A DNA stretch of 64,000 bases from an uncultured Dehalococcoidales bacterium. GTDB taxonomy: Bacteria; Chloroflexota; Dehalococcoidia; GIF9; UBA5629. The DNA is taken from assembly GCA_964549635.1 (NCBI GenBank), contig CAZJVJ010000002.1, positions 40,567 through 104,566 on the forward strand, in the 5' to 3' direction. Shown one piece after another: positions 3,287 to 60,736 of the stretch; position 1 is the first letter of the stretch, and the number at the start of each line of letters is the position of its first letter. A program made the position numbers and the translations under genes. A model generated the notes under the pieces. It was not told where the DNA came from, did not search any database, and worked only from the letters and a program-made list of their open reading frames with translations.

Positions 3287-3301
3287 CCGGGAGTTTCAAT
3301 T

Positions 3302-4033: not shown

Positions 4034-4161
4034 CGAAATATCCAAACTCGTTGAGCTGTAACAAAAACCTGTATTAAAGTATGTTAAAACGGTAGGCAAT
4101 CCGTTCCGAAGGTTGAAAAATAACTATAGCTACTTGGTCCTAGATATTTTGGAGTGAGACT

Positions 4162-25954: not shown

Positions 25955-27397
25955 ATGGTTGGTATTAAGTCCTATGGCGCTTACATCCCGCGGTACAGAA
26001 TGAACCGCAATACTATCTTTGGAGCGGTGGGGTTTCTGGGTACATTTCCAACACCTGGCGAGAAAGCGGTTGCCAATCACGATGAGGATACCCTTAGCAT
26101 GGCGGTAGCTGCTGGGATCGACTGCATCGATGGGCTGAAAAGAGAAGTAATAGATGGTTTGTATCTTGCTACTACCAGTCAGCCATATGTGCTGAGACAA
26201 AACTCGGCGATAGTTGCTGTTGCTCTTGATTTGCAGCCTAATATAAGGACAGCTGATTTCATCGCCTCCAACAAGGCGGGTACTACTGCTCTCATTGCTG
26301 CCTTTGACGCTGTAAAGGGGGGTACCTCGAGCAATATTTTAGTCTGCGCTTCAGATTGCCGACTGAGCAAGCCTGGTGGTCCTCAGGAACATCTGTATGG
26401 TGACGGCGCTGCAGCTTTATGGGTAGCGAATGACGATGTAATTGCTACTTTCGAGGGTTTTTATTCTGTTTCCTACGATTTCCCGGACCGCTGGAAGGCA
26501 AGCACCGAGGACTTTGAACATGCTTGGGAAGATAGATTCATTCGGGACGAAGGCTATACAAAAATGATACCCGAAGCAATTGCTGGCCTACTTAAGAAGT
26601 ATAATTTGAACATAAGGGAATTTGCCAAAATTGCGTTTCCCGGTATTTATGCCAGAGAGCATGCCGGTATTCTCAAAAGACTGGGTGCAGAACCGGGCCA
26701 AAGTCAGGATACCTTAATTGACAAAGTTGGTGATACCGGGACAGCTTCACCCTTAATGATGCTTGTAGCTGCGCTAGAGGATGCCAAACCTGGAGACAAG
26801 ATTCTGGTTGCCAGCTTTGGTAACGGCAGTGATGCCCTGTTTTTCCAAGTGACCGAAAATATAAAGAACGTAGGCGAGAGGCGTGGAGTGAAGAAACATT
26901 TGGTTTCAAAAAAGGAGCTCACCAGCTATGAAAAATATCTGGCTTTCCGTAAGTTAGCGCCGATGGACGTTGGCCTTCGGGGTGAGGTAGGCATTCGCAC
27001 CCCAATGTCTGCACTATATAGGGAACGAAAGACGATCCTAGGCTTGGTTGGCTCCAGGTGTAAAAAGTGTGGCACTCCGCAATATCCACCTCAAAGAGTT
27101 TGCGTCAACCCTGATTGTGGATCTGTGGATGAGATGGAAGACTATCGCTTTTCAGATAAGAAGGGCGTTGTGTTTACTTATACTGGAGACAATTTAGCTG
27201 CAAGTATTGACCCACCGTCAATTTATGGTCTGGTGGATTTTGAAGCTGGTGGAAGGTACTGGTTTGATTTTACAGATTGCGACCTTGACTCAGTTAGAGT
27301 AGGTATACCTGTGGAGATGACCTTTCGCAAAAGGTATGCGGACGAACCAACAGGTGTATATGGTTATTCTTGGAAGGCAACACCTATACGTGACTAG
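25955..27397 (+). CDS. HMG-CoA-synthase-like thiolase-fold domain fused to a DUF35 zinc-ribbon/OB-fold domain; catalytic residues apparently substituted
   Basis: The N-terminus 'MVGIKSYGAYIPRYRM' and overall pattern are HMGCS-like. The C-terminal 'CKKCGTPQYPPQRVCVNPDCGS' plus OB region matches DUF35. The Glu/Cys/His positions read T74/N106/P229 by eye alignment to MvaS. Confidence 0.7.
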   Translation: MVGIKSYGAYIPRYRMNRNTIFGAVGFLGTFPTPGEKAVANHDEDTLSMAVAAGIDCIDGLKREVIDGLYLATTSQPYVLRQNSAIVAVALDLQPNIRTADFIASNKAGTTALIAAFDAVKGGTSSNILVCASDCRLSKPGGPQEHLYGDGAAALWVANDDVIATFEGFYSVSYDFPDRWKASTEDFEHAWEDRFIRDEGYTKMIPEAIAGLLKKYNLNIREFAKIAFPGIYAREHAGILKRLGAEPGQSQDTLIDKVGDTGTASPLMMLVAALEDAKPGDKILVASFGNGSDALFFQVTENIKNVGERRGVKKHLVSKKELTSYEKYLAFRKLAPMDVGLRGEVGIRTPMSALYRERKTILGLVGSRCKKCGTPQYPPQRVCVNPDCGSVDEMEDYRFSDKKGVVFTYTGDNLAASIDPPSIYGLVDFEAGGRYWFDFTDCDLDSVRVGIPVEMTFRKRYADEPTGVYGYSWKATPIRD

Positions 27398-27432
27398 AGT
27401 TGCCTAATTGAATAAAGTACGGAGGATACAAA

Positions 27433-28635
27433 ATGGCAGAAGGCATTAAAGACAAGGTAGCTATTATAGGTATGGGATGTACTAAATTTGGAGAACTGTG
27501 GGACAAGAGCGCTGAGGATTTGATGGTTGATGCGTTTAAGGAATGCATTGAGGATGCGGGGATAGATAAGAAAGACCTTCAGGCTGCTTGGTTTGGGGTA
27601 CACTTTGAAGAGCAAAGTGTCGGCAAAGGCGCCACATCCTTGGCGCTGGCACTTAAGTTGCCCTTTATTCCGGTCACACGGACAGAAAACTTTTGTGCTA
27701 CCGCAACCGAAGCTTTCAGAGGTGCCTGTTACGCGGTGGCTTCTGGGGCTTATGACATTGTGCTTGCGTTAGGCGTGGAGAAGCTCAAGGATACTGGATA
27801 TGGTGGACTTCCTGGTGGCCCTGGTTTGATGGGGACGAGAAATGCACTTATCATGCCCAAGCTGACTGCCCCGGGGGCTTTTGCTATGATGGCTACTAGA
27901 TATTTTGCCGTGTATGGGCTCAGTCCGGAGGAAGGCAAAAGGATGTTGGCTAAGGTGTCAGTCAAAAGTCATTACAATGGAGCCAGGAATCCAAAGGCAC
28001 ACCTGCGCCGCGAGATAACTGAAGAGCAGGTGGTTAACGCCCCTATTATTGCTTGGCCGCTTGGGCTTTTCGACTGCTGTGGAGTGAGTGATGGCGCGGC
28101 AGCAGCAATTGTTACTCGAGCCGACATGGCTAAAAATTTCAGGCCTGACCCTGTATATGTGAAAGCGCTCCAGGTTGCCGTAAGTTCAGGTGAAGAGTTG
28201 ATGTATACCAAGTGGGATGGCGCTCATGTTGAGACGGGGTACCGGGCCGGAGTCCTTGCTTACAAAGAGGCTGGTATCAAGAATCCGCGCCAGGAGATAA
28301 GTATGGCCGAGGTACACGACTGCTTTTCGATTACTGAAGCAGTAACAATGGAGGATTTGCAGTTCAGCCCCAGAGGAAAGGTTAAAGAAGATATTGAATC
28401 TGGTCGCTTTAATATTAATGGAGAGCAACCTATCCAGCCTGATGGTGGCTTGAAATGCTTTGGGCATCCTATTGGCGCTTCTGGGTTGAGAATGCTGTAT
28501 GAAATGTACAAGCAGTTACAGGGGAAGGCTCAGTTGCCCGAGCGCCAGATAAAGAATCCCAAACTGGGTCTCACTCATAACATGGGTGGCTTCCCGGCGA
28601 TGAATATAGTCAGCGTGGCTATCGTCGGACTGTAA
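27433..28635 (+). CDS. SCP2-type (nonspecific lipid-transfer-protein-like) thiolase
   Basis: 400 aa with nucleophile region 'ENFCATATEAF', 'VHDCFS' (the HDCF motif of SCP2 thiolases), 'CFGHPIGASG' and 'HNMGG'. Confidence 0.8.
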   Translation: MAEGIKDKVAIIGMGCTKFGELWDKSAEDLMVDAFKECIEDAGIDKKDLQAAWFGVHFEEQSVGKGATSLALALKLPFIPVTRTENFCATATEAFRGACYAVASGAYDIVLALGVEKLKDTGYGGLPGGPGLMGTRNALIMPKLTAPGAFAMMATRYFAVYGLSPEEGKRMLAKVSVKSHYNGARNPKAHLRREITEEQVVNAPIIAWPLGLFDCCGVSDGAAAAIVTRADMAKNFRPDPVYVKALQVAVSSGEELMYTKWDGAHVETGYRAGVLAYKEAGIKNPRQEISMAEVHDCFSITEAVTMEDLQFSPRGKVKEDIESGRFNINGEQPIQPDGGLKCFGHPIGASGLRMLYEMYKQLQGKAQLPERQIKNPKLGLTHNMGGFPAMNIVSVAIVGL

Positions 28636-29758: not shown

Positions 29759-30538
29759 ATGGGAAAACTTGATGGAAAGGTAGCAGTTATTACCGGAGCG
29801 GCAAGGGGTATAGGCGAAGCTGATGCGGTATTGTTTGCCAAAGAGGGCGCTGCTGTTTTGTTGAGCGACATTGATGAAGCTCCGCTAAAGGAAGTGGTTC
29901 AGAAGATAAGGGCTGCTGGTGGAAAGGCCGAAGCTTGTGCCGGCGATGTTACGAAACCGGAGGATTGCCAGAGGATGATGGATATGGCAGTCGAGAAATT
30001 CGGCAAAATCGATATCCTAGTCAACAATGCCGGGCTTACCAGAGATGCCTTAATACATAAGATGACTGATGCCCAGTGGGACTTGTGCATCAACATTAAC
30101 CTTAAGGGGACTTTCAATTGCATTAGAGCTGCTTCCAAATATATGATGAAGGAAGGGCATAACGGAAGAATAATCAATGTTGCCTCTGTGGCCGGACTAA
30201 TGGGCAATGTAGGGCAGATAAACTATTCTGCGGCTAAGGCAGGTCTTATTGGGCTCACCAAAACCGTGGCCAGGGAATGGGGTAGATACGGTATTACTTG
30301 CAATGTTATAGCTTATGGTTTCGTTGATACGCGGTTGACAAGAGAGAAGGAAGTACAGCAAGAGGAAGTAGCTGGTGAACTAGTAGGTATACCAAAGAAA
30401 GTGAGGGATATGGTTCTTTTGCAAGTTAAGCCTATGACACCTGAAGATGCTGCCAAACCTGTACTTTTCTTGGCTTCTGATGATGCTGCTTTTATCACAG
30501 GCCAGGTATTGAACGTTTCAGCCGGAATGTATATGTAG
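29759..30538 (+). CDS. short-chain dehydrogenase/reductase (FabG-like 3-oxoacyl reductase / hydroxyacyl-CoA dehydrogenase)
   Basis: 259 aa with 'TGAARGIGEA', 'NNAG' and 'YSAAKAG'. Confidence 0.8.
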   Translation: MGKLDGKVAVITGAARGIGEADAVLFAKEGAAVLLSDIDEAPLKEVVQKIRAAGGKAEACAGDVTKPEDCQRMMDMAVEKFGKIDILVNNAGLTRDALIHKMTDAQWDLCININLKGTFNCIRAASKYMMKEGHNGRIINVASVAGLMGNVGQINYSAAKAGLIGLTKTVAREWGRYGITCNVIAYGFVDTRLTREKEVQQEEVAGELVGIPKKVRDMVLLQVKPMTPEDAAKPVLFLASDDAAFITGQVLNVSAGMYM

Positions 30539-30631
30539 TTTTACCATCTAGCCTGTTGGGGACATCGGGCTTATTGATGAGATAACAACTACGGGTGGGC
30601 AACAACCGAAATAAATATGAGGAGGCCTGAG

Positions 30632-31567
30632 ATGGCAAGGAGGCTGGAAGGTAAGGTAGCTGTGGTTACTGGTGCTGGGCGTGGTATTGGTAGGGCTGAG
30701 GCGTTGGCTTTAGCTGCCGAAGGGGCCAGGGTGGTGGTTAACGACTTTGGTGGTGCTGGTGATGGCACTGGTGCCTCTAAGGCTCCAGCAGGTGAGGTTG
30801 TCCAGGAGATTAAGAAACTTGGTGGCGAGGCCGTTGCTAATTATGACACTGTAGCCACTCCAGAAGGCGGGGAGAATATCATCAAGACCGCAATTGATGC
30901 TTTTGGTCGCATCGATATCCTAGTTAACAATGCCGGAATCCTTCGCGACCGCATGATTTTCAATATGAGCGAAGAGGAATGGGATGCGGTAATTAAAGTT
31001 CATTTGTATGGTACTTTCCATTGTACAAAACCGGCATGTGTCTATTTCAGGCAGCAGAGGAGTGGCAGGATAGTAAATACGTCCTCTACCTCAGGTTTAG
31101 GTAATATGGGACAGGCTAACTACAGTGCTGCCAAAGAAGGAATTGTTGGCTTTACTCGGACAGTAGCCAGGGACATGGGGAGGTATGGTGTAACGTGTAA
31201 CGCTATTCGCCCCAGTGCCGGAACAAGGCTGACGCTAACGCCGGAGCTGAGAGCTGCCTGGGAGAAGGCTAAGGCTGAAGGCTTGCGTCCTCAAGCAGGT
31301 GTCATAACCCTCGATGAACTTGAAAAAATGACCCCTGAGATGGTAGCTCCGCTGGTTGTATACCTGTGCACTGACGAAGCAGCGAACATAAACGGTTGCA
31401 CCTTCTGGGTGGGTGGTGGTGAGATAGGTATTTACTCGGAACCGGAAGTAAGAAGCCGGATATATAAAGAAGGTATATGGACAGTGGATGAACTGATTAA
31501 CATCGTTCCCAGAACTCTGGCTAGGGGACTGATAAATCCGGCACCTCCACAGACACCAAAGCAATAG
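30632..31567 (+). CDS. SDR resembling the (3R)-hydroxyacyl-CoA dehydrogenase domain of multifunctional enzyme type 2
   Basis: 'VVTGAGRGIGRAEALALAAEGARVVVNDFGG...GGEAVANYDTV...AFGRIDILVNNAGILRDR...GQANYSAAK' tracks the MFE-2/HSD17B4 N-terminal domain. I prefer ATG 30632 (GAGGAGG 6 nt upstream) over 30617. Confidence 0.7.
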   Translation: MARRLEGKVAVVTGAGRGIGRAEALALAAEGARVVVNDFGGAGDGTGASKAPAGEVVQEIKKLGGEAVANYDTVATPEGGENIIKTAIDAFGRIDILVNNAGILRDRMIFNMSEEEWDAVIKVHLYGTFHCTKPACVYFRQQRSGRIVNTSSTSGLGNMGQANYSAAKEGIVGFTRTVARDMGRYGVTCNAIRPSAGTRLTLTPELRAAWEKAKAEGLRPQAGVITLDELEKMTPEMVAPLVVYLCTDEAANINGCTFWVGGGEIGIYSEPEVRSRIYKEGIWTVDELINIVPRTLARGLINPAPPQTPKQ

Positions 31568-31772
31568 TTTGGTGATATACACACAGCATGGCTTGGCGCA
31601 CCAAGAAATTAGTCAGTGTAGCTAACAGCGATATCTGCGTTGGCGCTGCCTGCTTGTTAGTGTTTAGTTTCTGCTGGTAGGGGGCACTTGCTTTAGTTGA
31701 CATCGTGCTTCACTTAATGACTGGAGACTCAACAAAATGTCTCGTTAACACCAAGTTTTGGGAGGCTTTAGG

Positions 31773-32975
31773 ATGGATTTCAAACTGAGTGACAAAGAAA
31801 AAGCTTTAATAGAAGAGATTGCAAAATTTGCCAAGGAAGAGCTACCTGAAGATTTTGTCGGCACTCATCTAATTGACCAAGAGTACCCAAACTTCGAATT
31901 CGAAATATCTATGTCCAAAAAGCTGGCCCAGAAAGGGTGGCTAGTAATGAGCTGGCCGAAGGAGTATGGTGGGCAAGGAGCTTCTTTACTTGAACAAACA
32001 GTGTATGAAATGGAGATATCCTACTGGGGGATACCAGGAGCATGGATGGGCATAAGTGGCACACAGTGGGTGGGGCCATGCCTCATGCTGTTCGGAACAG
32101 AAGAACAGAAGAAGAAATACCTGCCGCTCATTGCCTCCGGTGATAAAGACGGTGTCTGGTGCACCGGGTACAGTGAGCCAAATGCAGGCTCTGACCTTGC
32201 CAATCTGCAGACACGAGCTGTGAGGGATGGTACCGATTACATAATCAATGGCCAGAAGGTATGGACTAGCAAGGCCCACCACGCAAGGTGGTGCTGGCTT
32301 CTGGCGAGGACAGACCCTAGTGCAGCGAAGAAACACCGTGGACTTAGCCTGTTTATAGTGGACATGAAGAGTCCGGGAATAACGGTCAACCCTATATTGA
32401 ACTACTACGGTCGGCATCACTTTAATGAGGTGTTTTTTGACAATGTTAAGATCCCGGCTTCTAATCTGGTTGGTGAGGAGAACAGGGGATGGTATCACCT
32501 GATGCAAGCTCTGGCATTTGAGAGACGAAGTGTGGCCCCCCTAGCTTATGGAAGTTCTAAGAGGTTGCTGGAATCACTGGTTAAGTATGCCAGAGAAACT
32601 CATTACCAGGGTAAGTTACTGAGCCAGGTTCCCGCTGTCCGTCATAAACTGGCTGAGCTGGCGATAGATGTGGAGGTGATTAAACTGTTTGCTTACCAGT
32701 TTACTTGGCGAGTGATGCAGGGTGCGATACCCGCCTATGAATCCTCTAGAAATAAAATCATGGGTGATGACGTGCTTCGAAAGGTGGCCATTTTGGGGGC
32801 AGATATATTAGGAGTATACTCGCAAGTTGATCCGAATTCGAAATGGGCCCGACTTAAGGGGGCCATTCAGGGGGCTTATCTCGGTTTTCCTGGCTCTATG
32901 ATTGCTGCGGGTACTGCTGAAATTGAAAGAAGCATTATAGCCCAGTTTAAGCTGGGCCTGCCGAAATCGTACTAG
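31773..32975 (+). CDS. acyl-CoA dehydrogenase, class A (IVD/LCAD-type catalytic Glu present)
   Basis: 'MDFKLSDKEKALIEE', 'ALAFERRSV' (Glu at the IVD position) and 'AAGTAEIERSII' (Ala at the MCAD Glu position). I prefer ATG 31773 after GGGAGG. Confidence 0.8.
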   Translation: MDFKLSDKEKALIEEIAKFAKEELPEDFVGTHLIDQEYPNFEFEISMSKKLAQKGWLVMSWPKEYGGQGASLLEQTVYEMEISYWGIPGAWMGISGTQWVGPCLMLFGTEEQKKKYLPLIASGDKDGVWCTGYSEPNAGSDLANLQTRAVRDGTDYIINGQKVWTSKAHHARWCWLLARTDPSAAKKHRGLSLFIVDMKSPGITVNPILNYYGRHHFNEVFFDNVKIPASNLVGEENRGWYHLMQALAFERRSVAPLAYGSSKRLLESLVKYARETHYQGKLLSQVPAVRHKLAELAIDVEVIKLFAYQFTWRVMQGAIPAYESSRNKIMGDDVLRKVAILGADILGVYSQVDPNSKWARLKGAIQGAYLGFPGSMIAAGTAEIERSIIAQFKLGLPKSY

Positions 32976-32994
32976 ACGTTTGTAGGAGGTCACC

Positions 32995-34149
32995 ATGGAT
33001 TTTGGTTTCACAGAAGAGCAAGAGATGCTCCGAACCATGGCAAGAGATTTTCTAGCCAATGAATGTCCCAAGTCGAAGGTTAGAGAGCTGGACAGAGATG
33101 AAAAGGGCTACGATCCTAAGATGTGGCGCGATATGGCAGAACTGGGGTGGATGGGACTTATCTTCCCGGAGAAGTATGGCGGGACTGGAGCCAAATTTGT
33201 AGATATGGTAGTTTTGATGGAAGAAATGGGGAGGAATATTGTACCGGGGCCTTTCTTTTCAACCATTGCCCTGTGCGCCTTACCCATCCTTGAATTCGGT
33301 ACGGAGGAACAGAAATCTAAATTTCTGCCAGAGATAATAAAAGGTGAAGCTATATGGACGTTAGCTCTGATGGAACCATCAGCTAGTTATGAGGCACCAG
33401 GGATAAATTTTAGTGCTTATTTGGAAGGAGATGAGTATGTACTAGAGGGTGAGAAGATTTTTGTTCCCGATGCTCACATAGCTGATTACGTTCTTGTGGT
33501 AGCCAGGACGGGCAAAGGTGAAACACCTGAAACGGGCATCGCGTTATTCATAGTCCAGGGCAAATCTCCAGCCCTCAAAATTGAAAGAATACCTACCATG
33601 GCTGGAGACAGGCAGTTTCAGGTTATTTTTGATAGAATCAAGGTATCTAGGAATGACATTCTGGGAATAGCAGGTAAGGGATGGGAAGTAGTGGACTTTA
33701 TTTTACAGAGAGCCGCTGTATTGAAATGTGCTGAGATTTCAGGCGCGTGTCAAGCTGTTCTTGATATGACCAGCACGTATGCCAGGGAGCGGATTCAGTT
33801 CGAACGTCCGATAGGAGCGTTTCAGGCGGTACAGCAAAAATTGGCTGACATGCTTATAGATGTTGAAGCGATTCAGTTCCTTGTTTACCAGGCGGCCTGC
33901 AGTATTGATGAAGGTAAACCATCCCAATTACTGATTTCAATAGCCAAAGCTAAAGCAAGCGAGGCTTATCAGAAGATTTGTATTGATGGCATTACCTCAC
34001 ATGGAGCGATAGGTTTTACCTGGGATCACGATATCGGGCTCTACTACAGGCGAGTCAAGGCAGCCCAGTTCACTGCTGGTGATATTGATCTGCATCGGGA
34101 GAAAATAGCTATTGAGCTGGGGCTTCAGCATGACACAGAGCTTAATTAG
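32995..34149 (+). CDS. acyl-CoA dehydrogenase family, class B (both known catalytic-base positions substituted)
   Basis: ACAD fold ('MDFGFTEEQEMLR', 'PEKYGGTG'), but 'DFILQRAAV' has Gln at the IVD position and 'FTAGDIDLHRE' has Ala at the MCAD position. Confidence 0.75.
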   Translation: MDFGFTEEQEMLRTMARDFLANECPKSKVRELDRDEKGYDPKMWRDMAELGWMGLIFPEKYGGTGAKFVDMVVLMEEMGRNIVPGPFFSTIALCALPILEFGTEEQKSKFLPEIIKGEAIWTLALMEPSASYEAPGINFSAYLEGDEYVLEGEKIFVPDAHIADYVLVVARTGKGETPETGIALFIVQGKSPALKIERIPTMAGDRQFQVIFDRIKVSRNDILGIAGKGWEVVDFILQRAAVLKCAEISGACQAVLDMTSTYARERIQFERPIGAFQAVQQKLADMLIDVEAIQFLVYQAACSIDEGKPSQLLISIAKAKASEAYQKICIDGITSHGAIGFTWDHDIGLYYRRVKAAQFTAGDIDLHREKIAIELGLQHDTELN

Positions 34150-34374: not shown

Positions 34375-36165
34375 ATGAAAAAGGGTCTGTTTCTATTGTT
34401 AACTGGTCTTTTGTCGGCATCATTGTGCCTGCCAGCGTGTCAACCTAAGGCTATAGAGGAGAACATCATCAAAATCGGCATCGTCGGGCCGATGCAGTTC
34501 ATGCAAGGTGAGCATCACTGGATGGGTGCGACTATGGCTGCTGAGGAAATCAACAATGCTGGCGGAGTAAGTTTGGGCGGGAAAAAGTATCTTATAAAGC
34601 TCGTCAAAATTGATAGCAATGAGATACTTGATGTTGCTGGTGCTGCATCCGCAGTGGAGAGAGCCATAACCGTGGATAAAGTTGACTTCCTAATGGGCGG
34701 TTTCAGGACAGAAGCAGTTTACCCCATGTCCGATGTAGCCATGGACTATAAAAAGATTTTCATCAACTGTGGCGCTGCCACTGCAGCACTTCAGAAGCGA
34801 GTGGCCGATGATTACAATCGTTATAAGTACTTTTTCAAGGGCACTCCGTTCAATGAGTACTTTTTGGTGGAAAACAATTTCCGCATGTTAGGAATGGTTG
34901 CCGCTATTTTAAAAAAGGAACTGGGCATAGAAGAACCTAGGGTTGCCATAATTGCTGAAAAGCTGGAGTGGACTGAAGCAATGGTGCGATTAGCCCAGGC
35001 GAAATTACCGGGTATGGGGATGGAGGTAGTTGGTGTGTGGCGGCCATCGGATACGGCTACAGATGTCACCGCCGAGCTGACGGCCATTGCTGCCAAGGAA
35101 CCCCACATTATATTTACCGTGTTCTCTGGCCCTGTGGGCATTACCTATGCTAAACAACGCGGCGAGCTGAAGATACCTGCTTGTTCAGTTGGTATTGTTG
35201 TTGAAGGTCAGAAAAAGGAGTTCTGGACAGCTACCGGTGGCAAAGGCAACTATGAGACATTCTTAAACACGTATGCCAAGGGTGTAGCCTTAACTCACAA
35301 GACGGTACCTTTCTTCGAAGAGTTCGAGAGGCGAACTGGTCAATTCCCGACATACACCGCGGCTACTTATGATGCTGTCTGGAGTACCAAAGAAACGATT
35401 GAAGCGCTTCAGACCCTAGATGCTGATGCTCATGTTCCCTATATTGAAAAGTCATCATTTGTTAGCACTGGTGGGGTTCGAGAGTACTATCAACTGGGTG
35501 ATTCGCCATGTCCGCCAAAGTGTCCTCATGACCTAGTTTATGGTCCGGGCAAACTAACAGGTATTTGCACACAGTGGCAGGATGGAGAGCTTAAAGCTGT
35601 CTGGCCAAAGAAGGAATATGGCACGGGTGAGTGGGCATTTGAGTATCCAGGCACTGTTCCATTCAAGATACCGCCTGAGGTAATCGCTAAGTTTAAGGAC
35701 GCCAAACCTGTACCGAAACCGGAAGCACCGAGACCTAAAGTTAACGAGTATGTCAATGCTGACTATGGCTTTTCAGTGAGATATCCAATACAGTGGGTGG
35801 CGGCAGCACCTACTGCGCCGGCTGTGCTATATGCTGCTAGCCCAGCTAGGGTTCCAGCTATTCATGTTTTCGTGCTAGAAGGTGCCACTTTTGCCGATGC
35901 GGTAAAAACCGCGCTGGAGAAAGGGGCTGGTGGTTCGGCTATTAAGATTGGGGGTGAGAAGGAGACAACCCTAGCTGACGGCACTAAAGCTACGGCAGCT
36001 AAGGTGGACTGGACAGTCCTGGGATTTTCAGGCGAATCATATGCCTTGGGAGTGAAAAAGGCTGACAAGTGGATTATAGTTACTATAACCACTGTAGCCC
36101 TGGTTGAGGCTTATGACGAGGCTAAATTCTCAGAGATAGCGCGCACTCTTGAGTTTAAAAAGTAG
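34375..36165 (+). CDS. lipoprotein: type-1 periplasmic-binding-fold (Leu/Ile/Val-binding family) solute-binding protein with an extra C-terminal domain of about 139 aa
   Basis: Lipobox 'LCLPAC'. SBP core 'IKIGIVGPMQF...AAEEINNAGGV'. A Pro-rich linker 'KPVPKPEAPRPK' precedes a C-terminal domain (nt 35746-36162) homologous to the C-terminus of the 48964 lipoprotein. Confidence 0.75.
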   Translation: MKKGLFLLLTGLLSASLCLPACQPKAIEENIIKIGIVGPMQFMQGEHHWMGATMAAEEINNAGGVSLGGKKYLIKLVKIDSNEILDVAGAASAVERAITVDKVDFLMGGFRTEAVYPMSDVAMDYKKIFINCGAATAALQKRVADDYNRYKYFFKGTPFNEYFLVENNFRMLGMVAAILKKELGIEEPRVAIIAEKLEWTEAMVRLAQAKLPGMGMEVVGVWRPSDTATDVTAELTAIAAKEPHIIFTVFSGPVGITYAKQRGELKIPACSVGIVVEGQKKEFWTATGGKGNYETFLNTYAKGVALTHKTVPFFEEFERRTGQFPTYTAATYDAVWSTKETIEALQTLDADAHVPYIEKSSFVSTGGVREYYQLGDSPCPPKCPHDLVYGPGKLTGICTQWQDGELKAVWPKKEYGTGEWAFEYPGTVPFKIPPEVIAKFKDAKPVPKPEAPRPKVNEYVNADYGFSVRYPIQWVAAAPTAPAVLYAASPARVPAIHVFVLEGATFADAVKTALEKGAGGSAIKIGGEKETTLADGTKATAAKVDWTVLGFSGESYALGVKKADKWIIVTITTVALVEAYDEAKFSEIARTLEFKK

Positions 36166-48963: not shown

Positions 48964-50040
48964 ATGAAATACGGTTTTAAGGCATTAATTATCATAGCTG
49001 CGGTGGCACTTCTGATATTGCCGATGGCAGCCTGTGCTAAACAGCCGCCTGCTCCTCCTCCCCCTCCGCCCCCTCCAGCAGGGACAATTAGCGTGGAGCC
49101 AGCGAAGGTTGACTTCGAGCTTTTGAAGAAGTACTTCCCGCCGATTGCCAAGGCGTTGGGACTTCCTGAGGCTATGTCAGCAACGGTGCCGCATTTGGCT
49201 ATGCTGGCTGTTCCCGTGACATTCAAGGGGAGCGGCTGGCGGCCCAATGAGATAATCACAGTGGAGTTGGTCGTACCTCCCGATATTGAAATACCGGGGC
49301 TTGACCGGGCTCGCGGCGAGGATTCTGTTGGTATCGCTTATGCGACCGCAGACAGCGCAGGAAACTTTGAAGCGAAGCTGGAGAGGACGGCGACTATTGG
49401 GTTCATACTGCGCGGTGGATTTCAGCCGACACTGGCGATAGACCCAAAGACGCTAATCCCAGGAAACCCGTTGCCCAATGGCAGCTATACGTTGAGGGCT
49501 ATGGGTGATGACCCCCGTGCCGTAGCTACCACGACCTGGGTGTTAGAGCTAAAGCCACCAGCAGCGCCGCCAACTCCACCGGCAGAGAAGCCAGCTGAGC
49601 CTGGCAAACTTACGTTTGAGGCTGCAGAGTACACCAACGCTGAATTTGGTTTCTCAGTCAAGTATCCTAAGGAGTGGAAGCCTGAGAAGTCTGAAACGCT
49701 TCTATTCTATGCTGCAGCACCTACCATGGTTCCGGTTTTGTTTGTTGATGTTGAGACAGGGGCCACCTGTGCCGAAGCACTCAAGAAAATGCTTGAGGCT
49801 GCCGGCGGGACTGCCTTTAAAGTCCTCTCTGAAAAGGACAGCACTTTGGCCGATGGTACAAAGGCCTCAACAGTGACATTCGAAATATCGTTGAGGGGAT
49901 TCGCCGGCAAAGGCTTTGCACTGGGCACGAAAAAGGATGACAAGTGGATTATGGTTTCAGTTGGAACCGTGGAGATGCTGGCGAAGTATGATGAGGCTAA
50001 GTTCTCGGAGATAGTCCATACCCTGCAACTCAAGAAGTAA
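48964..50040 (+). CDS. two-domain lipoprotein of unknown function; its C-terminal domain is homologous to the C-terminal extension of the 34375 SBP
   Basis: Lipobox 'PMAAC', then an 8-Pro run, a beta-rich N-domain of about 160 aa, a Pro-rich linker, and a 137-aa C-domain (nt 49627-50037) ending 'KYDEAKFSEIVHTLQLKK'. The SBP C-terminus ends 'AYDEAKFSEIARTLEFKK'. Confidence 0.7.
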   Translation: MKYGFKALIIIAAVALLILPMAACAKQPPAPPPPPPPPAGTISVEPAKVDFELLKKYFPPIAKALGLPEAMSATVPHLAMLAVPVTFKGSGWRPNEIITVELVVPPDIEIPGLDRARGEDSVGIAYATADSAGNFEAKLERTATIGFILRGGFQPTLAIDPKTLIPGNPLPNGSYTLRAMGDDPRAVATTTWVLELKPPAAPPTPPAEKPAEPGKLTFEAAEYTNAEFGFSVKYPKEWKPEKSETLLFYAAAPTMVPVLFVDVETGATCAEALKKMLEAAGGTAFKVLSEKDSTLADGTKASTVTFEISLRGFAGKGFALGTKKDDKWIMVSVGTVEMLAKYDEAKFSEIVHTLQLKK

Positions 50041-51230: not shown

Positions 51231-51262
51231 AGGCAGGTCTATTTCTGACCTGCCTCTTTTTT
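51231..51262 (+). terminator. rho-independent terminator after the livF-type gene
   Basis: A 9-bp stem aggcaggtc/gacctgcct with a 7-nt loop, followed by cTTTTTTg. Confidence 0.6.
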
Positions 51263-55040: not shown

Positions 55041-55274
55041 CTATTCAATAATGGCTATAATGTCACCCTCTAAGATGGAATCGCCTTCTTTCACCCTGAT
55101 TTCTGCCACCGTGCCATTATAGGGTGCTTTCACTCGGATTTCCATTTTCATAGATTCGAGTATGACAATAGTTTCACCCTCATTGACTTTCGCACCAACC
55201 TCTGCCAGGATTTTCCAGACACTGCCTGTTATTGGTGAAGCAACTTCTTTCATGGCTATTTTAATTCGGTTCAC
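55041..55274 (-). CDS. stand-alone biotin carboxyl carrier protein (biotinyl domain only)
   Basis: 77 aa with 'ILESMKMEIRV', containing the biotinyl-Lys M-K-M motif. The GTG start overlaps the upstream stop (GTGA). Confidence 0.8.
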   Translation of the reverse strand: MNRIKIAMKEVASPITGSVWKILAEVGAKVNEGETIVILESMKMEIRVKAPYNGTVAEIRVKEGDSILEGDIIAIIE

Positions 55275-56137
55275 TCGTTCTTTGTTTCACTCAGCCCCAG
55301 AATGACTTTTGCCTCCTCCACTGTAGCTGGCTCTCTGCCGATATCTCGCGTCATCCTTACTGCTTTCTCCACCAGTGGGCCGTTTCCCTCTGCCATTATG
55401 CCGGGTGCTAGATAGAAATTATCCTCCAGTCCGACCCTAACATTGCCACCAAGAGCCAGCGCAGTGGCTACCAGCAACCATTGCTCCTCGCTGATACCTA
55501 TTACCTGCCACTGTGTTCCCTGAGGGACTACACTAGAAACGTGGGCTAAATTTCTAGCCGTGGCAGCCATCCCTCCCACTACGCCGAAAATAAGGCTTAC
55601 TTGAAAGTTCTTAAGCAACCCCATGTCAATCAGCGGAAATAGGCTCTCCAGATGTCCGAGGTCAAAGCATTCGCATTCTGGCTTTACCCCACTCTTGTTC
55701 ATGGTGTCCAAAAAAAACATTATATCGTCGAATGGGTTTTGGAAGACTACAGAGAAAACGAAATTCTTTCGCCTTGGACTGTACTTGGCATAGTTCATTG
55801 TTCCCATATTAAGTGCTGCAATTTCCGGCTTCAGTTCACGGATGTGAGCGATTCTGTTTTCCCTGTCGATGCCTACAGCACCAGTAGAGAAGTTTATTAT
55901 GATGGGACATCTTTTCCTCACCTCGTCCATGATTTCCTTAAAAATTTCCACCCTCCATGACGGCCTGCCATCGTATTCTCTACCGTGGATGTGTACCACG
56001 GAAGCTCCGGCATTGTAAGCTCTTAGTGCCTCGTCAGCAATTTCCTGTGGGGTATAAGGTATCCATTTGCACTGGTCTCTGTTAGCTGCTACACCGGTCA
56101 AAGCAGCAGTGATAACTACCTTGTCTTGCAGCCCCAT
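55271..56137 (-). CDS. BKACE-family (beta-keto acid cleavage enzyme, DUF849) TIM-barrel protein
   Basis: 'VVITAALTGV...PYTPQEIADEALRAYNAGASVVHIHGRE' carries the H-x-H metal motif. I prefer ATG 56137 (GAGAGGAG upstream, 19 nt after the crotonase stop) over 56191. Confidence 0.75.
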   Translation of the reverse strand: MGLQDKVVITAALTGVAANRDQCKWIPYTPQEIADEALRAYNAGASVVHIHGREYDGRPSWRVEIFKEIMDEVRKRCPIIINFSTGAVGIDRENRIAHIRELKPEIAALNMGTMNYAKYSPRRKNFVFSVVFQNPFDDIMFFLDTMNKSGVKPECECFDLGHLESLFPLIDMGLLKNFQVSLIFGVVGGMAATARNLAHVSSVVPQGTQWQVIGISEEQWLLVATALALGGNVRVGLEDNFYLAPGIMAEGNGPLVEKAVRMTRDIGREPATVEEAKVILGLSETKNE

Positions 56138-56156
56138 GTTTACTCCTCTCTTTAAA

Positions 56157-56942
56157 TTATTTTCCTTTCCAAACTGGTTCTCGCTTCTCAAGAAAAGCGG
56201 CTATACCTTCAGCTACGTCTTCGGCCATAGTGTTGACAGCCAGCATTGAGGCCAGATATTCCAGAGCTTTTTCATATTCCATATCTCGCATGGTGTAGAA
56301 AGCTCTTCTACCAAGCCTCAGAATGGCTGGGCTTTTGTTGACTATTTTCTTGGCGACCTCTTCAACTTTTGCATCTAACTGTTCCCTGGGCACGACATAG
56401 TTCACCAGCCCGAGCTCCTGGGCTTCTTTGGCATCTACTCTTTCACCGGTCAGCATTATTTCTAGAAGCCGTTTGGGGGATGAGGTGAACTTAATCAAGG
56501 TAGCCATGATGATGTAAGGGAACAGTCCCACGTTTATCTCCGGGGTTCCAAAGCGGCAATCGTCAGCCGCGATTACTATGTCACAAGCTGCAGCTAGTCC
56601 AAGGCCACCACCGAGGGCGTGACCATTTATCCGGCCAAGCAGCGGTTTCTTAAGTCCGCGGATCAACTTAAAGAGCTCGGCAAAATTCCTCTGACCTTCG
56701 TAACGGTCAAGAAAAGTTGTTGGGGTGCCCATCGATTCTGCAAAGTCAGCACCGGCGCAGAAAACTTTGCTACCAGCTCCTGTTAGCACAATAACTACTG
56801 TTGACGGGTCCTCGTCATATTGCTTGAAGGCATTCAGCAGTTCAACTAACATTGTTGGGGTTATGGCATTCCTGCGCTCTTCGCGAGACAAGGTGATTGT
56901 AGCTACTTTATCTGTAACGGCGGTTGTTATGGTTTGATACAT
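56157..56942 (-). CDS. enoyl-CoA hydratase/isomerase (crotonase) family
   Basis: 261 aa with 'LTGAGSKVFCAGADF', 'INGHALGGGLGLAAACD' and 'FGTPEINVGLFP'. Confidence 0.85.
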   Translation of the reverse strand: MYQTITTAVTDKVATITLSREERRNAITPTMLVELLNAFKQYDEDPSTVVIVLTGAGSKVFCAGADFAESMGTPTTFLDRYEGQRNFAELFKLIRGLKKPLLGRINGHALGGGLGLAAACDIVIAADDCRFGTPEINVGLFPYIIMATLIKFTSSPKRLLEIMLTGERVDAKEAQELGLVNYVVPREQLDAKVEEVAKKIVNKSPAILRLGRRAFYTMRDMEYEKALEYLASMLAVNTMAEDVAEGIAAFLEKREPVWKGK

Positions 56943-56953
56943 AGGTGACCTCC

Positions 56954-58525
56954 TTATACCGGGTAGACTCCATGCTTTCTCGGATGTCGATATATCTTCT
57001 TATCTTTTGTAAACTCAAGGGCTCGGATTAAGACCCTTCTAGTTTCTCTGGGGTCAATAACGTCATCTACGAAGCCAAGTCTGGCTGTCTTATAGATGTT
57101 AATCTGCGGCCTTATCTCGTCGGCAAGGCGTTCTATCATTTCCTGAGGGTTTTCAGCCTCAGCTATTTGTTTTCTAGCGAAGATAGACACCATGCCTTCA
57201 GGCCCCATAACTGCTATTTCAGCTCCCGGATAGGCGATCAGCAGGTCGGGATCAAAAGATCTGCCACACATAGCGTAATAGCCGGCGCCGTAGGCTTTTC
57301 TGGCAATTAGGGTAAATTTGGGGACGGTAGCTTCAGCTACAGCATGAATCATTTTAGCACCGTGTCTAATTATCCCAGACCTTTCTGCCTTGGACCCTAC
57401 CATAAAGCCAGGAACATCGGCTATGAAGAAAAGTGGAATATTAAAAGCATCGCACAGCCAGATGAAACGAGCAGCTTTGTCAGCAGCATCTATGTCAATA
57501 ACTCCACCGTAGAAGAGAGGGTTGTTGGCAACAAATCCTACTGAATAGCCAGCTATCCTGCCGAATCCGACAATAATATTTCTGCCCCATTTTGGCTTAA
57601 TCTCGAAGAAGTAGCCATCGTCAACTATATATTTTATCAGGTCATGCATATCGTAGGCTTCTCGACGATTGTCCGGTATGACATTTAATATACCATCGGA
57701 GATCAAGGCTTCGGGGTCTCCAGTCCACTCTTTTCTGAGCGGTTTCTGGTCGCAGTTCTGGGGGAAAAAGGAGAGATACTGTTTTATGACTTTAATACAT
57801 TCCTCGTCGTTAGCTACTTCCAGATCACCGCAACCACTTATCTCACAGTGGATCTTAGAGCCGCCCAGTTCGTCTTCAGTTAAAGTTTCCTTGATGACCA
57901 TTTTTACAAGGGATGGTCCCCCGAGTCCCATAAAGCTGGTTCCTTTAACCATGGGTACGAAATCGGAAAGTCCAGGGATATAAGCGGTGCCAGCATAACC
58001 TGGGCCCATCATAGCGCACACAAGGGGAATTACTCCTGACATCAATGATTCTTCCTTAAAAAGGTACCCAGAATCGGCAAACATGGCTACCCGTTCACCA
58101 GAGAGACCTCCACCGCTCACTCTGGCACCACCGGAGTCACTCAGCCATATCATGGGGATTCTCTCCTTAAGGGCGATTTCTCTTATTCTGGTTACTTTAA
58201 TCTCGTTGACTACGCCCATGGAGCCGCCTCTAACAGTGAAGTCATAGGCTGCAACAGCTACATCTCTAAGCCTAATACCATCATTCAGCTTGCCATACCC
58301 GGTAATGCATCCGTCTGCCGGAACAAGTTCAGGCACACCAAACTCGCTACCGAGCATACCAATTTCAACAAATGTTCCCTTTTCAATTAAAAGGTCAATC
58401 CGTTCTCTGGCCGTTAATTTTCCTCTTTCATGATGTTTTTTGACAGCCTCTTCGCCGCCCATCTTCATGATTTCAGCGCGGAGTTCCTGAAGCTTTTTAA
58501 CTTCCTGTTTCATCCATTCACCCAT
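56954..58525 (-). CDS. acyl-CoA carboxylase carboxyltransferase (beta) subunit, specificity unresolved
   Basis: 523 aa with 'GKLTARERIDLLIEKGTFVE', 'DFTVRGGSMG', 'SDSGGARV' and 'ELGGSKIH'. The start overlaps the biotin carboxylase stop by 8 nt. Confidence 0.8.
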   Translation of the reverse strand: MGEWMKQEVKKLQELRAEIMKMGGEEAVKKHHERGKLTARERIDLLIEKGTFVEIGMLGSEFGVPELVPADGCITGYGKLNDGIRLRDVAVAAYDFTVRGGSMGVVNEIKVTRIREIALKERIPMIWLSDSGGARVSGGGLSGERVAMFADSGYLFKEESLMSGVIPLVCAMMGPGYAGTAYIPGLSDFVPMVKGTSFMGLGGPSLVKMVIKETLTEDELGGSKIHCEISGCGDLEVANDEECIKVIKQYLSFFPQNCDQKPLRKEWTGDPEALISDGILNVIPDNRREAYDMHDLIKYIVDDGYFFEIKPKWGRNIIVGFGRIAGYSVGFVANNPLFYGGVIDIDAADKAARFIWLCDAFNIPLFFIADVPGFMVGSKAERSGIIRHGAKMIHAVAEATVPKFTLIARKAYGAGYYAMCGRSFDPDLLIAYPGAEIAVMGPEGMVSIFARKQIAEAENPQEMIERLADEIRPQINIYKTARLGFVDDVIDPRETRRVLIRALEFTKDKKIYRHPRKHGVYPV

Positions 58526-59864
58526 TTTTTGCCTCCAATAACTTTGGTATAAAGTGTGTATCGTAGGTTCCTGATTTGAACATGGCAGAATGAAAGGCTT
58601 TTTTCAGAAATGGGATATTGTTTTTAATGCCAGTTATTTCATAATTTTCCAGAGCTTTAAGCATTCTCTCGATTGCTTTATCCCTATTTTCACCCCAAAC
58701 AATTAGCTTTGCAATCAGAGGGTCGTAAAACTGACTAATAGTATCACCAGCTTTATATCCGGAATCGACTCTTATTCCGTCCCCCACTGGTTCCACATAC
58801 GACAGCAGTTTACCTGGTGATGGATAGAATTTTTCTGAGTCTTCAGCATAAATTCTGGCTTCAATGGCCCAGCCTTTCCATTTTATCTCCTCGTCCTTAA
58901 TAGACAAAGGCTGTCCCGAGGCAATTTCGATTTGTTTTTCAACTAGGTCAAATCCAGTGATCATCTCTGTGATCGGATGTTCTACCTGAAGCCTGGTATT
59001 TATTTCCAGGAAGTAAAAGTTTCGGTTTTTGTCGACCACGAACTCTATCGTGCCGGCATTAGTGTATCCAAGCTCCTGAGCTAGCGTCTTGGCTGCCCGT
59101 CTCAGCCCGGTTCGAAGCTCCGGAGTGGCGAATGGTGATGGTGATTCTTCGATTACCTTTTGATGTCGTCTTTGGACTGAACATTCTCTTTCCGGGAAGG
59201 TAACCACATTGCCACTATGGTCTGCTAATACTTGTATTTCTATGTGATGAGGAGATTCCAGATACTTCTCTATGTAGACTCTTTCATCACCGAAAGCCAA
59301 TCTAGAACGATTTGTGGCTTGCTCAAAAGCTTCAGCTATATCCTCCATTCGCTCTACTTTCTGCATCCCTATTCCACCACCGCCGGCTGATGCCTTGAAG
59401 ATAACAGGGAGAGAGAGTCTTTCTGCCCATTCTTTTGCCTCTTCAGCATTGCGCAATATATTGCTACCAGGCGGTATGGGGATACCCAAACTAGTAGCAA
59501 TTTCTCTGGAGCGTGCCTTATCGCCCATTCTGTGGATGACTTGAGATTTTGGGCCGATAAAAATTATTCCCTCCCTCTCACATCTCTCAGCAAATTCCCA
59601 TCTTTCAGAAAGGAAACCATATCCGGGATGAATAGCCTCTACGTTTAGTTCCTTGGCAATAGCAATAATATTGTCAATGTTAAGGTAACTATCTTTGGGT
59701 CTTGGACCGCCAACATTTACAGCTTTATCCGCTTCTTGGACAAACAGGGCTTGCTCATCAATGTCTGAGTAGATGGCTATGGTTTTAATGCCTAACTTTT
59801 TGGCAGTTCTGATTACACGCCTCGCAATCTCCCCGCGGTTAGCAACGAGTATGGATTTAAGCAT
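58518..59864 (-). CDS. biotin carboxylase (stand-alone, no fused BCCP)
   Basis: 448 aa with 'ILVANRGEIARRVIRT', 'IHPGYGFLSE', 'KASAGGGGIGM' and 'EINTRLQVEHPITE'. Confidence 0.9.
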   Translation of the reverse strand: MLKSILVANRGEIARRVIRTAKKLGIKTIAIYSDIDEQALFVQEADKAVNVGGPRPKDSYLNIDNIIAIAKELNVEAIHPGYGFLSERWEFAERCEREGIIFIGPKSQVIHRMGDKARSREIATSLGIPIPPGSNILRNAEEAKEWAERLSLPVIFKASAGGGGIGMQKVERMEDIAEAFEQATNRSRLAFGDERVYIEKYLESPHHIEIQVLADHSGNVVTFPERECSVQRRHQKVIEESPSPFATPELRTGLRRAAKTLAQELGYTNAGTIEFVVDKNRNFYFLEINTRLQVEHPITEMITGFDLVEKQIEIASGQPLSIKDEEIKWKGWAIEARIYAEDSEKFYPSPGKLLSYVEPVGDGIRVDSGYKAGDTISQFYDPLIAKLIVWGENRDKAIERMLKALENYEITGIKNNIPFLKKAFHSAMFKSGTYDTHFIPKLLEAKNG

Positions 59865-60187: not shown

Positions 60188-60229
60188 CAGATGGCAGTGA
60201 AGGCTTTTGTTTTTGTGAAGGAGGATTCA

Positions 60230-60736
60230 TTGAGAAGCAACAAGAAGAATCAATTACTGTTTTTTGGACTTATAGTTTTGCTGGTTGGCCTGTCTACTGC
60301 CTGTGGTAAGCCCACAGGTTATATTACGTATAAGAATGATGCTATGGGATATGCCATAAGTTATCCATACAACTGGCAGCTTGAGGTTTCTGAGGATGGG
60401 ACAAAATGTTTCATAGTATCCCCCATGCGTAGAGCTTCGGTTATGATAGACGTGTCTCCACCTATGGCAGCACGAGATGCTGCCAACCGCTGGATTATGG
60501 CGCTGGGAACGGCGTGGTCTGAAATCACCTTGCTCAAAAATGAACCTGGGCAGGGATTGTGGGATTGGTATCTTTCATATGATTATGAGGGTCAATATGG
60601 TCTTTATCATGGCGAAGCCTATTTCAAAAGAACTGAAAAAAGACTTTATAAGGTGGATACGGCAGCAGACAAGAACGGATATGAACATTATCCTTTTGAT
60701 ACGATAATTTCAACATTCAAGTTGCTGGGGAGATAA
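60230..60736 (+). CDS. small lipoprotein whose N-terminal pattern resembles the transporter-associated C-terminal domain (PsbP-like?)
   Basis: I prefer TTG 60230 (AAGGAGG 5 nt upstream). Signal peptide and lipobox 'LSTAC'. 'YKNDAMGYAISYPYNW' parallels 'YVNADYGFSVRYPIQW' and 'YTNAEFGFSVKYPKEW'. Confidence 0.6.
   Translation: MRSNKKNQLLFFGLIVLLVGLSTACGKPTGYITYKNDAMGYAISYPYNWQLEVSEDGTKCFIVSPMRRASVMIDVSPPMAARDAANRWIMALGTAWSEITLLKNEPGQGLWDWYLSYDYEGQYGLYHGEAYFKRTEKRLYKVDTAADKNGYEHYPFDTIISTFKLLGR

Follow-up and report, generated by a model that had tools for sequence, protein, structure and literature searches.

Within the 64,000 nucleotides analysed here from an uncultured Dehalococcoidales bacterium (GenBank contig CAZJVJ010000002.1; hereafter the window), a single operon of eight closely packed genes occupies 59864-51349 on the minus strand and encodes a biotin carboxylase (BC), a carboxyltransferase (CT), a crotonase, a member of the BKACE family (DUF849), a biotin carboxyl carrier protein (BCCP) and three acyl-CoA dehydrogenases (ACADs). 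Our reading, which we hold tentatively and put at not quite an even chance, is that these genes form a module resembling the Liu and Atu pathways that would strip an acyl-CoA of a beta-methyl branch and in which non-orthologous enzymes would take the last steps. Evidence for a joint role is that the same BKACE clade (56-93% identity) lies beside CT, crotonase and BCCP/BC genes in four bacterial lineages. The gene order and strand had been proposed from inspection of the DNA alone (the original prediction), and profile searches with Pfam and NCBIfam, on which the gene identities given below are based, recovered all eight genes as listed. Public annotation gives the operon proteins generic names, the CT being called an acyl- or acetyl-CoA carboxylase subunit and the BKACE a '3-keto-5-aminohexanoate cleavage protein'. 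The system would be a variant of a known pathway type, and the case for it is one of comparative genomics only.

Conservation of the gene neighbourhood

Scanning one genome per species yielded 80 loci, on which the window proteins were mapped; the counts that follow are of loci with enough flanking sequence. Among the Dehalococcoidia, CT and crotonase (ECH in the gene orders below) are present in 29/29 loci, ACADs in 27/29, and BC and BCCP in 23/29. On contigs that encode homologues of the window BKACE, two arrangements recur: BC-CT-ECH-BKACE-BCCP-ACAD, as in the window, and CT-ECH-BKACE followed by three ACADs, which is without BC and BCCP. The flanks of the latter contain thiolase/DUF35 pairs, a MaoC hydratase and another, divergent BKACE, as well as SCP2, an Fe-alcohol dehydrogenase, an aldehyde:ferredoxin oxidoreductase and a 3-hydroxyacyl-CoA dehydrogenase. 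Loci from metagenome-assembled genomes (MAGs) of Actinomycetota have the order ECH-CT-(upp)-BKACE-BCCP-ECH2 and no ACAD; BCCP is found in 18/18 of them, the crotonase in 16/18 and CT in 15/18. The five loci from Pseudomonadota, Myxococcota and 'Deltaproteobacteria' MAGs all read CT-BC-BCCP-ECH-BKACE. Flanking genes of the Actinomycetota, Pseudomonadota/Myxococcota, Calescibacterium and Planctomycetota loci are housekeeping genes and give no hint of the substrate.

The operon arrangement is no accident, because it is kept across dozens of Dehalococcoidia contigs, and the recurrence of one BKACE clade with the same neighbours means that the linkage between carboxylase, crotonase subfamily and BKACE is old and four lineages wide. 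The functional tie of the BKACE to the carboxylase and crotonase, which the original prediction had proposed, is upheld by this adjacency. BKACE homologues number more than 8000; the best 120 listed are 82-97% identical, and those with a named source come from Dehalococcoidia or Chloroflexi MAGs.

The genes added in related Dehalococcoidia loci fit the breakdown of a lipophilic branched alcohol or acid. In one variant without BC and BCCP (locus L002, 14594-20177), a ferredoxin, SCP2, the Fe-alcohol dehydrogenase, the aldehyde:ferredoxin oxidoreductase and the 3-hydroxyacyl-CoA dehydrogenase extend the cluster, which may reflect anaerobic degradation that starts from a lipophilic alcohol. Many relatives also have, adjoining the cluster, a second BKACE paralogue of 306-308 aa with 34-35% identity (L002 2617-3543; L005 14747-15667; also L007-L010, L025, L027, L029 and L039), whose neighbours often include a MaoC dehydratase and DUF35 proteins besides two thiolase-like genes. 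This paralogue is absent from the window.

Active sites of the operon enzymes

The CT is a protein of 523 aa (58525-56954, minus strand as for all operon genes; Carboxyl_trans, 496 bits). CTs have been divided into a lineage carboxylating the alpha carbon, with propionyl-CoA carboxylase (PCC) and acetyl-CoA carboxylase (ACC), and one carboxylating the gamma carbon, with the carboxylases of 3-methylcrotonyl-CoA (MCC) and of geranyl-CoA (GCC), and an N-terminal helix of about 30 residues in the beta subunits of MCC and GCC is missing from that of PCC (Jurado et al. 2015, PMC4673880). When compared with solved structures by phmmer, the window CT scores best with PCC/MMD-type subunits (1x0u, 456 bits; 1vrg, 452 bits), followed by MCC-beta (275), GCC-beta (268) and GcdA (94). 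Its two active-site loops, GYAGTAYIPGLSD and YGAGYYAMCGRSFDP (AGTAYIP; YGAGYYAMCGR), have the MCC pattern, as represented by CTAGAAYIPAMSD and FGAGNYAMCGRAYSP (FGAGNYAMCGR) in the MCC-beta of locus L083, and differ from the PCC pattern, AAGGAVYSPALTD and YGGAY-D/I-xMxSK. The Asp that governs specificity in PCC (D407 of the M. extorquens enzyme, in GGAYDVM), a position that we take to be D422 in S. coelicolor PccB, is Tyr in the window CT (GAGYYAM), and orthologues from Dehalococcoidia and Actinomycetota keep this Tyr. When 130 representatives of the nearest CT clusters were compared, the combination of AG.AYIP with GAG.Y.M occurred only in the window/Actinomycetota type, in the MCC type and in a few uncharacterised clusters. 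A plain PCC, a possibility that the original prediction had raised against itself, was rejected because of the Tyr and the two MCC-type loops, the overall similarity remaining PCC-like; a glutaconyl-CoA decarboxylase was likewise rejected, given the low score with GcdA and the presence of an ATP-dependent BC. A neighbour-joining tree places the window type with the MCC-containing group (73% bootstrap support), and we take the window CT to be a separate clade that is probably allied to MCC/GCC.

In L083, the CT linked to this BKACE clade scores 645 bits with PaMCC-beta (3u9r_B) and 651 with AccD1, as against 476 with GCC and ~255 with PCC, has an N-terminal extension, and is followed by BC, BCCP, a crotonase of the same single-Glu subfamily and the BKACE; on this similarity it is unambiguously assigned as a true MCC-beta. 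At L083 4963-9207 (and at L054, L057, L084 and L086), BC (482 aa) and a small BCCP are encoded next to the MCC-beta by genes of their own, whereas classical MCC has a fused BC-BT-BCCP alpha subunit.

The other carboxylase parts in the window are split in the same way, as originally described. The BC (448 aa; 59864-58518) contains Biotin_carb_N, CPSase_L_D2 and Biotin_carb_C without a BT or BCCP domain, and scores 597 bits with PRK08654, under the cut-off of that equivalog; its predicted 8-nt overlap with the CT gene is exact. The separate minimal BCCP (55274-55041; Biotin_lipoyl) is 70 aa long if it starts at ATG 55253 and 77 aa if it starts at GTG 55274, and its SMKM motif, in ESMKME, supplies the biotinylatable Lys expected from the (A/S)MKM consensus, so that the set of BC, CT and BCCP needed for a biotin-dependent carboxylase is complete. 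ATG 55253 is probably the BCCP start, because the orthologues are called as 70 aa. The 4-nt GTGA overlap from which translational coupling of BKACE and BCCP had been proposed is accordingly doubtful, although the two genes still abut. Archaeal-type acyl-CoA carboxylases (Sulfolobales; CT 1x0u) resemble the window enzyme in having BC, BCCP and CT as separate proteins and in giving the best CT match, but the window CT differs from theirs in its loops and specificity residue, and the window BCCP consists only of a 70-aa biotinyl domain.

The crotonase (261 aa; 56942-56157; ECH_1) departs from canonical members of its family at one catalytic residue. Canonical hydratases have two catalytic glutamates, in the pattern GGGxE...PE, whereas the window enzyme has GGGxG...PE, with Gly in place of the first Glu (GGGLGL) and the second retained (TPE). 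The same pattern is found in every orthologue, from Dehalococcoidia, Actinomycetota (copy e1), Pseudomonadota/Myxococcota and Calescibacterium. As the first catalytic Glu is lost, this crotonase is not of the LiuC/AUH type, and the idea of a LiuC-like hydratase has to be given up. Its best profile, PRK08139, is matched below the cut-off and is uninformative; the best solved relative is the 3-hydroxypropionyl-CoA dehydratase 5zai. A possible functional model is hydroxycinnamoyl-CoA hydratase-lyase (HCHL; 2j5i/2vss), which has Ser at the position of the first Glu and keeps the second (GGGFS123...SE143), and which hydrates an enoyl-CoA and then cleaves the product by a retro-aldol reaction to acetyl-CoA and a carbonyl compound. 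HCHL would thus be a precedent, by analogy, for a crotonase that does both without the first Glu. The two proteins match with ~130 bits only, the window enzyme has Gly and not Ser, and any lyase role for it is hypothetical. In the Actinomycetota, a second crotonase (e2) directly follows BCCP (L053 11118-11888, L073 11119-11895, L081 11133-11918); it is without both catalytic glutamates (GGGFQL ... IPAA) and is probably no hydratase.

The BKACE (288 aa; 56137-55271; PF05853, 314 bits) lies in an open reading frame (ORF) that reaches back to TTG 56191. ATG 56137 is most likely the start, since GAGGAG stands 6 nt upstream and the orthologues are 283-293 aa long, and with this start a gap of 19 nt, and no overlap, separates it from the crotonase gene. 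An alignment to 2y7d and one of 84 clade members (97 sequences with outgroups) show that the zinc ligands H46, H48 and E230 and the residues E143, R226 and D231 (Kce numbering) are invariant, from which genuine BKACE chemistry would be expected, that is, conversion of a beta-keto acid and acetyl-CoA to an acyl-CoA and acetoacetate. The pocket, on the other hand, is distinct (Ala18, Ala108, Phe158, Ser181, Trp220): Kce E14 and T106 are replaced by Ala, Tyr145 by Phe158 and Gln170 by Ser181, and Ala18 stands where most other BKACEs have His, so that polar residues are lost. Kce Glu14 presumably binds the amino group of the substrate. The intact catalytic set together with the altered pocket would suit a genuine enzyme of beta-keto acids whose substrate has no amino group and is more hydrophobic. 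The 84 BKACEs of the scan, most of them linked to a carboxylase, fall into a single clade distinct from Kce, BKACE15, 3lot, 3e49 and the Dehalococcoidia paralogue, and the window protein scores below every curated NCBIfam equivalog cut-off (269 vs 382 bits for Lys_ferment_KCE, NF052387; 221 vs 430, 201 vs 725 and 176 vs 350 for the others). It therefore shares with the characterised members (Kce 2y7d; BKACE15 8rio/8rip/9hnf; the dehydrocarnitine, 3-oxoadipate and 3,5-dioxohexanoate cleavage enzymes) the fold family, the zinc ligands and the Glu/Arg/Asp set, and differs from them in its clade, pocket, sub-cut-off scores and biotin-carboxylase context. The literature searched showed no link of BKACE/DUF849 to carboxylases, HMG-CoA lyase or leucine/terpene catabolism, a mention in Bastard et al. 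2014 being possible, and a NetSyn survey of BKACE genome contexts mentions no carboxylase.

The three ACADs close the operon. The first (395 aa; 55005-53818) is a ChsE4/PimC-like large, catalytic subunit, its paralogue (398 aa; 53779-52583; missing from some related loci) a second, PimC-like one, and the third (377 aa; 52482-51349) a PimD/IpdE2-like small subunit. The best solved relative of the first is ChsE4 of the M. tuberculosis ChsE4-ChsE5 enzyme (240 bits), ahead of IpdE1-like Tcur3483 (214) and isovaleryl-CoA dehydrogenase (IVD; 143). Both large subunits have a Glu, in DYER or DFER, in the column of ChsE4 E247, the IVD/LCAD-type position; none of the three has the MCAD-type Glu of YEG, and the small subunit, as read from the translations, has no Glu at either known base position. 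The IVD-type base of the original prediction is indeed there (Glu254 in IVD), but IVD is a homotetramer and the closest relatives are the heteromers ChsE4, IpdE and PimCD; an identity as IVD was rejected on these scores and on the presence of large and small subunit genes. Adjacent paralogous genes with Glu in one subunit type only are the hallmark of a heteromer, which we predict here, with the small subunit probably the non-catalytic partner of an alpha2beta2 enzyme. The signature is that of putative heteromers acting on bulky branched acyl-CoAs. ChsE4-ChsE5 (4x28), Tcur3481/3483 (6wy8, IpdE1-IpdE2-like) and PimCD are the top structural or profile matches and likewise have adjacent subunit genes; unlike for the steroid-type enzymes, no steroid-degradation genes lie near the window ACADs, and there are two alternative large subunits. 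All three also match the model for non-decarboxylating glutaryl-CoA dehydrogenase, NF045552, with 150-223 bits.

A proposed beta-methyl excision route and its alternatives

In the route that we propose, an alpha2beta2 ACAD, composed of either large subunit and the small one, would dehydrogenate R-CH(CH3)-CH2-CO-SCoA to a 3-methyl-2-enoyl-CoA, and the split BC/BCCP/CT carboxylase would add CO2 to its gamma-methyl group to give a 3-alkylglutaconyl-CoA. The single-Glu crotonase would hydrate this product to a 3-hydroxy-3-alkylglutaryl-CoA, and the crotonase, in the manner of HCHL, or else the BKACE may then split it on its thioester side, through a retro-aldol cleavage, into acetyl-CoA and R-CO-CH2-COOH. 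The BKACE is a candidate for this cleavage because acetoacetate and acetyl-CoA, the products of HMG-CoA cleavage, are held side by side in the active site of BKACE15 (PMC11961710). Finally, the BKACE would carry out a Claisen exchange between acetyl-CoA and the free beta-keto acid, releasing R-CO-SCoA and acetoacetate. From the hydration onwards, the net reaction would be 3-alkylglutaconyl-CoA + H2O to acyl-CoA + acetoacetate; with R = CH3 the outcome is the same as that of HMG-CoA lyase, and for a larger R it would replace LiuE and the thiolase of the Atu route (PMC4097962). Gene content, linkage and active-site residues are observed here, and from them we infer the substrate, the carbon that is carboxylated and the enzyme behind the retro-aldol cleavage. 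The model accounts for the pairing of crotonase and BKACE, the intact BKACE machinery and the MCC-type CT in Pseudomonadota/Myxococcota, as well as for the MCC-like loops, the ACADs for bulky substrates and the lipid-handling genes of the sister loci. A more far-reaching version, which we consider somewhat unlikely, is a hitherto unrecognised multi-phylum system for beta-methyl excision in which a split carboxylase, a single-Glu crotonase acting as hydratase-lyase and a dedicated BKACE clade that recycles acetyl-CoA would work together, so that the branch and two chain carbons leave as acetoacetate without thiolase or free CoA.

In its logic the proposed module follows the Liu/Atu pathways of Pseudomonas (LiuA/AtuD, the MCC LiuBD or GCC AtuCF, LiuC/AtuE, LiuE; PMC4097962, PMC4673880), with the same order of an ACAD, a biotin carboxylase, a crotonase-family enzyme and an enzyme that breaks a C-C bond to give a C4/C2 fragment, and with a true MCC-beta in the Pseudomonadota/Myxococcota relatives of the operon. 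The claim that it matches liu/atu gene for gene does not hold. The window has a BKACE and not a DRE-TIM lyase, a crotonase minus one catalytic Glu, a carboxylase split into BC, CT and a 70-aa BCCP without a BT domain, ChsE4/PimCD-like alpha2beta2 ACADs that are not IVD/AtuD-like, and a CT that is PCC-type by score and has no MCC/GCC N-terminal helix. That the window encodes no DRE-TIM lyase was noted from the start, and neither the scanned window ORFs (180 aa or longer) nor the genes called in L001-L006 include an HMGL-like or DRE-TIM protein. The suggestion that the BKACE takes the lyase's place stands in so far as it follows the hydratase where liuE would sit in Pseudomonadota/Myxococcota; it is not necessarily a plain substitute for the lyase, and with all canonical Claisen residues kept it could act in a step after the retro-aldol cleavage. 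Replacement of both enzymes has a parallel in the R-specific leucine route of M. tuberculosis (PMC6689899), a Liu-type pathway with AccA1/AccD1 as MCC, in which hydratase and HMG-CoA lyase are both non-orthologously replaced, there by a MaoC-type hydratase and the CitE/HpcH-type lyase Rv2498c, in the window by a single-Glu crotonase and a BKACE.

Several points weigh against beta-methyl excision. By overall similarity the window CT is closer to PCC-type subunits, whose target is the alpha carbon of saturated acyl-CoAs, and it starts in register with them, without the ~30-residue N-terminal helix of MCC and GCC. Its MCC-like loops are shared with other uncharacterised CT clusters and are therefore no proof of gamma-carboxylation, and the bipartition that joins it to the MCC-containing group, found in 73% of 200 neighbour-joining bootstraps of an unrooted tree, comes from a simple distance method. 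With R = CH3, the canonical BKACE reaction becomes degenerate, so that a BKACE beside a true MCC is explained only if one of the two, BKACE or crotonase, itself acts as the lyase. A BKACE that stands by itself occurs in Calescibacterium and in one Planctomycetota MAG, a canonical lyase may be encoded elsewhere in the genome, the search having covered the window and the called genes of L001-L006, and both the BKACE clade and the crotonase subfamily are known from sequence alone.

The CT similarities suggest a different explanation, which we regard as unlikely: the enzyme would be an alpha-carboxylating short-chain acyl-CoA carboxylase (for acetyl-, propionyl- or butyryl-CoA) serving beta-oxidation products, the ACADs and crotonase would belong to ordinary beta-oxidation, and the BKACE, independent and merely sharing the catabolic island, would turn a free beta-keto acid into acyl-CoA and acetoacetate. 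The PCC/MMD-type scores, the missing helix, the public name of the CT and a window rich in CoA ligases, ACADs, thiolase and transporters all speak for it, but the specificity position holds Tyr, where PCC has Asp and the acetyl-CoA-accepting D407I variant has Ile, the two oxyanion loops are MCC-type and the crotonase is no canonical hydratase. It would also leave unexplained why CT, BCCP, crotonase and BKACE persist together in ACAD-less, housekeeping-flanked loci of Actinomycetota, and why, in Pseudomonadota and Myxococcota, the same BKACE/crotonase pair accompanies a true MCC-beta. We consider it quite unlikely that, as a strict form of the original prediction would have it, the BKACE alone is a direct non-orthologous lyase for HMG-CoA or 3-hydroxy-3-alkylglutaryl-CoA, with the crotonase a hydratase only and no Claisen exchange. 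The position after the hydratase in MCC-type clusters, a zinc TIM barrel that binds acetoacetate and acetyl-CoA together (PMC11961710) and the precedent of the CitE-like Rv2498c (PMC6689899) are in line with this idea; yet a pure lyase would not obviously need the strictly conserved Claisen-type residues, and the loss of the first crotonase Glu across the subfamily would go unexplained. It overlaps heavily with the excision route and differs only in the enzyme assigned to the retro-aldol step.

A very improbable variant sets R = H, so that crotonyl-CoA would be carboxylated to glutaconyl-CoA, which would be hydrated and split into acetyl-CoA plus malonate semialdehyde, and the BKACE would convert the semialdehyde with acetyl-CoA to formyl-CoA and acetoacetate, as a natural counterpart of the BKACE step in the synthetic CORE cycle. 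Out of 124 BKACEs, more than 20 can use malonate semialdehyde (PMC11961710), and both the NF045552 matches of the ACADs and the kinship of the crotonase with 5zai are consistent with it. An ATP-costing carboxylation followed by release of C1 has no evident benefit, however; the CT is far from GcdA, the cluster has no genes for handling formyl-CoA or formate, and the pocket of the BKACE subfamily is more hydrophobic than that of other BKACEs. A role of the BKACE in lysine fermentation or carnitine degradation, unrelated to the carboxylase, is hardly credible. The top NCBIfam model (Lys_ferment_KCE) and the NCBI annotation would point that way, but the score is below the cut-off, Kce Glu14 is Ala throughout the clade, neither the window nor the related loci contain kamA, kdd, kal or a carnitine dehydrogenase, and the conserved neighbours are a carboxylase and a crotonase. 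Neither a lysine-pathway nor a carnitine substrate, which had both been named at the outset as what might undo the original prediction, is borne out, and this role was rejected.

The surrounding island and wider implications

The operon closes a catabolic island of ~37 kb (22.9-59.9 kb), the left third of the window being occupied by housekeeping genes. Besides the operon, the island encodes ADP-forming acyl-CoA synthetase subunits, an HMGS-like/DUF35 fusion with a thiolase, two short-chain dehydrogenases/reductases (SDRs), a second ACAD pair, Liv-type ABC transporters and two AMP-forming ligases. The fusion, at 25955-28635 (plus strand), is a 480-aa protein with a weak match to ACP_syn_III_C (HMG-CoA-synthase-like) and a C-terminal DUF35 part (zf-ChsH2 and OB_ChsH2_C); the thiolase gene follows directly, and the whole resembles the archaeal thiolase/HMGCS/DUF35 complex with two of its parts fused. 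The second ACAD pair, a PimC/PimD-like large and small subunit at 31758-34149 (plus strand), has the two SDR genes upstream (29759-31567), and the island is therefore predicted to encode two or more heteromeric ACAD systems. Two alpha-type genes for ADP-forming acyl-CoA synthetase (CoA_binding and Succ_CoA_lig) are present at 13997-15481 and 22922-24304 (both plus strand), and a beta-type gene (ATP-grasp_5; 24287-24988, minus strand) runs against the second of these and overlaps its end.

A Peripla_BP_6 binding protein and a Pro-rich lipoprotein-like ORF (34375-36165 and 48964-50040) share a C-terminal domain of ~130 aa that has no Pfam match and follows the pattern …ADGTKA…KK.DKWI.V…FSEI..TL..KK; a small ORF beside the operon (60191-60736), also without a Pfam match, looks related to this domain. 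Upstream of BC, a promoter-like site, TTGACA-17-TATAGT (60035-60007, minus strand), is a consensus match only, and such sites are no more frequent in the region than in shuffled sequence. A GC-rich hairpin (51231-51255, strand not assigned) marks the end of the operon next to a convergent ABC-ATPase gene. Clustered genes for the cobalamin lower ligand and salvage, with a CobT-like DBI_PRT, CobS and CobU (2195-4704, plus strand), are common in Dehalococcoidia.

If beta-methyl excision is correct, BKACE would be a third non-orthologous answer to the HMG-CoA lyase step, after the DRE-TIM and CitE-type lyases, and the CT would represent a new clade between the PCC and MCC lineages that links the two. 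The route would also account for a set of genes found very widely in Dehalococcoidia of sediments and groundwater, with many of its BKACE homologues more than 80% identical; the current lysine-fermentation and acetyl-CoA-carboxylase annotations distort metabolic reconstructions of these abundant uncultured organisms. As BKACEs are already part of synthetic CO2-reduction cycles, an engineering use is possible. For the family itself, the finding would mean a new physiological role and a new substrate class, and, should the multi-phylum version be true, anaerobic Dehalococcoidia would gain a route for lipids of the isoprenoid or sterol-side-chain type.

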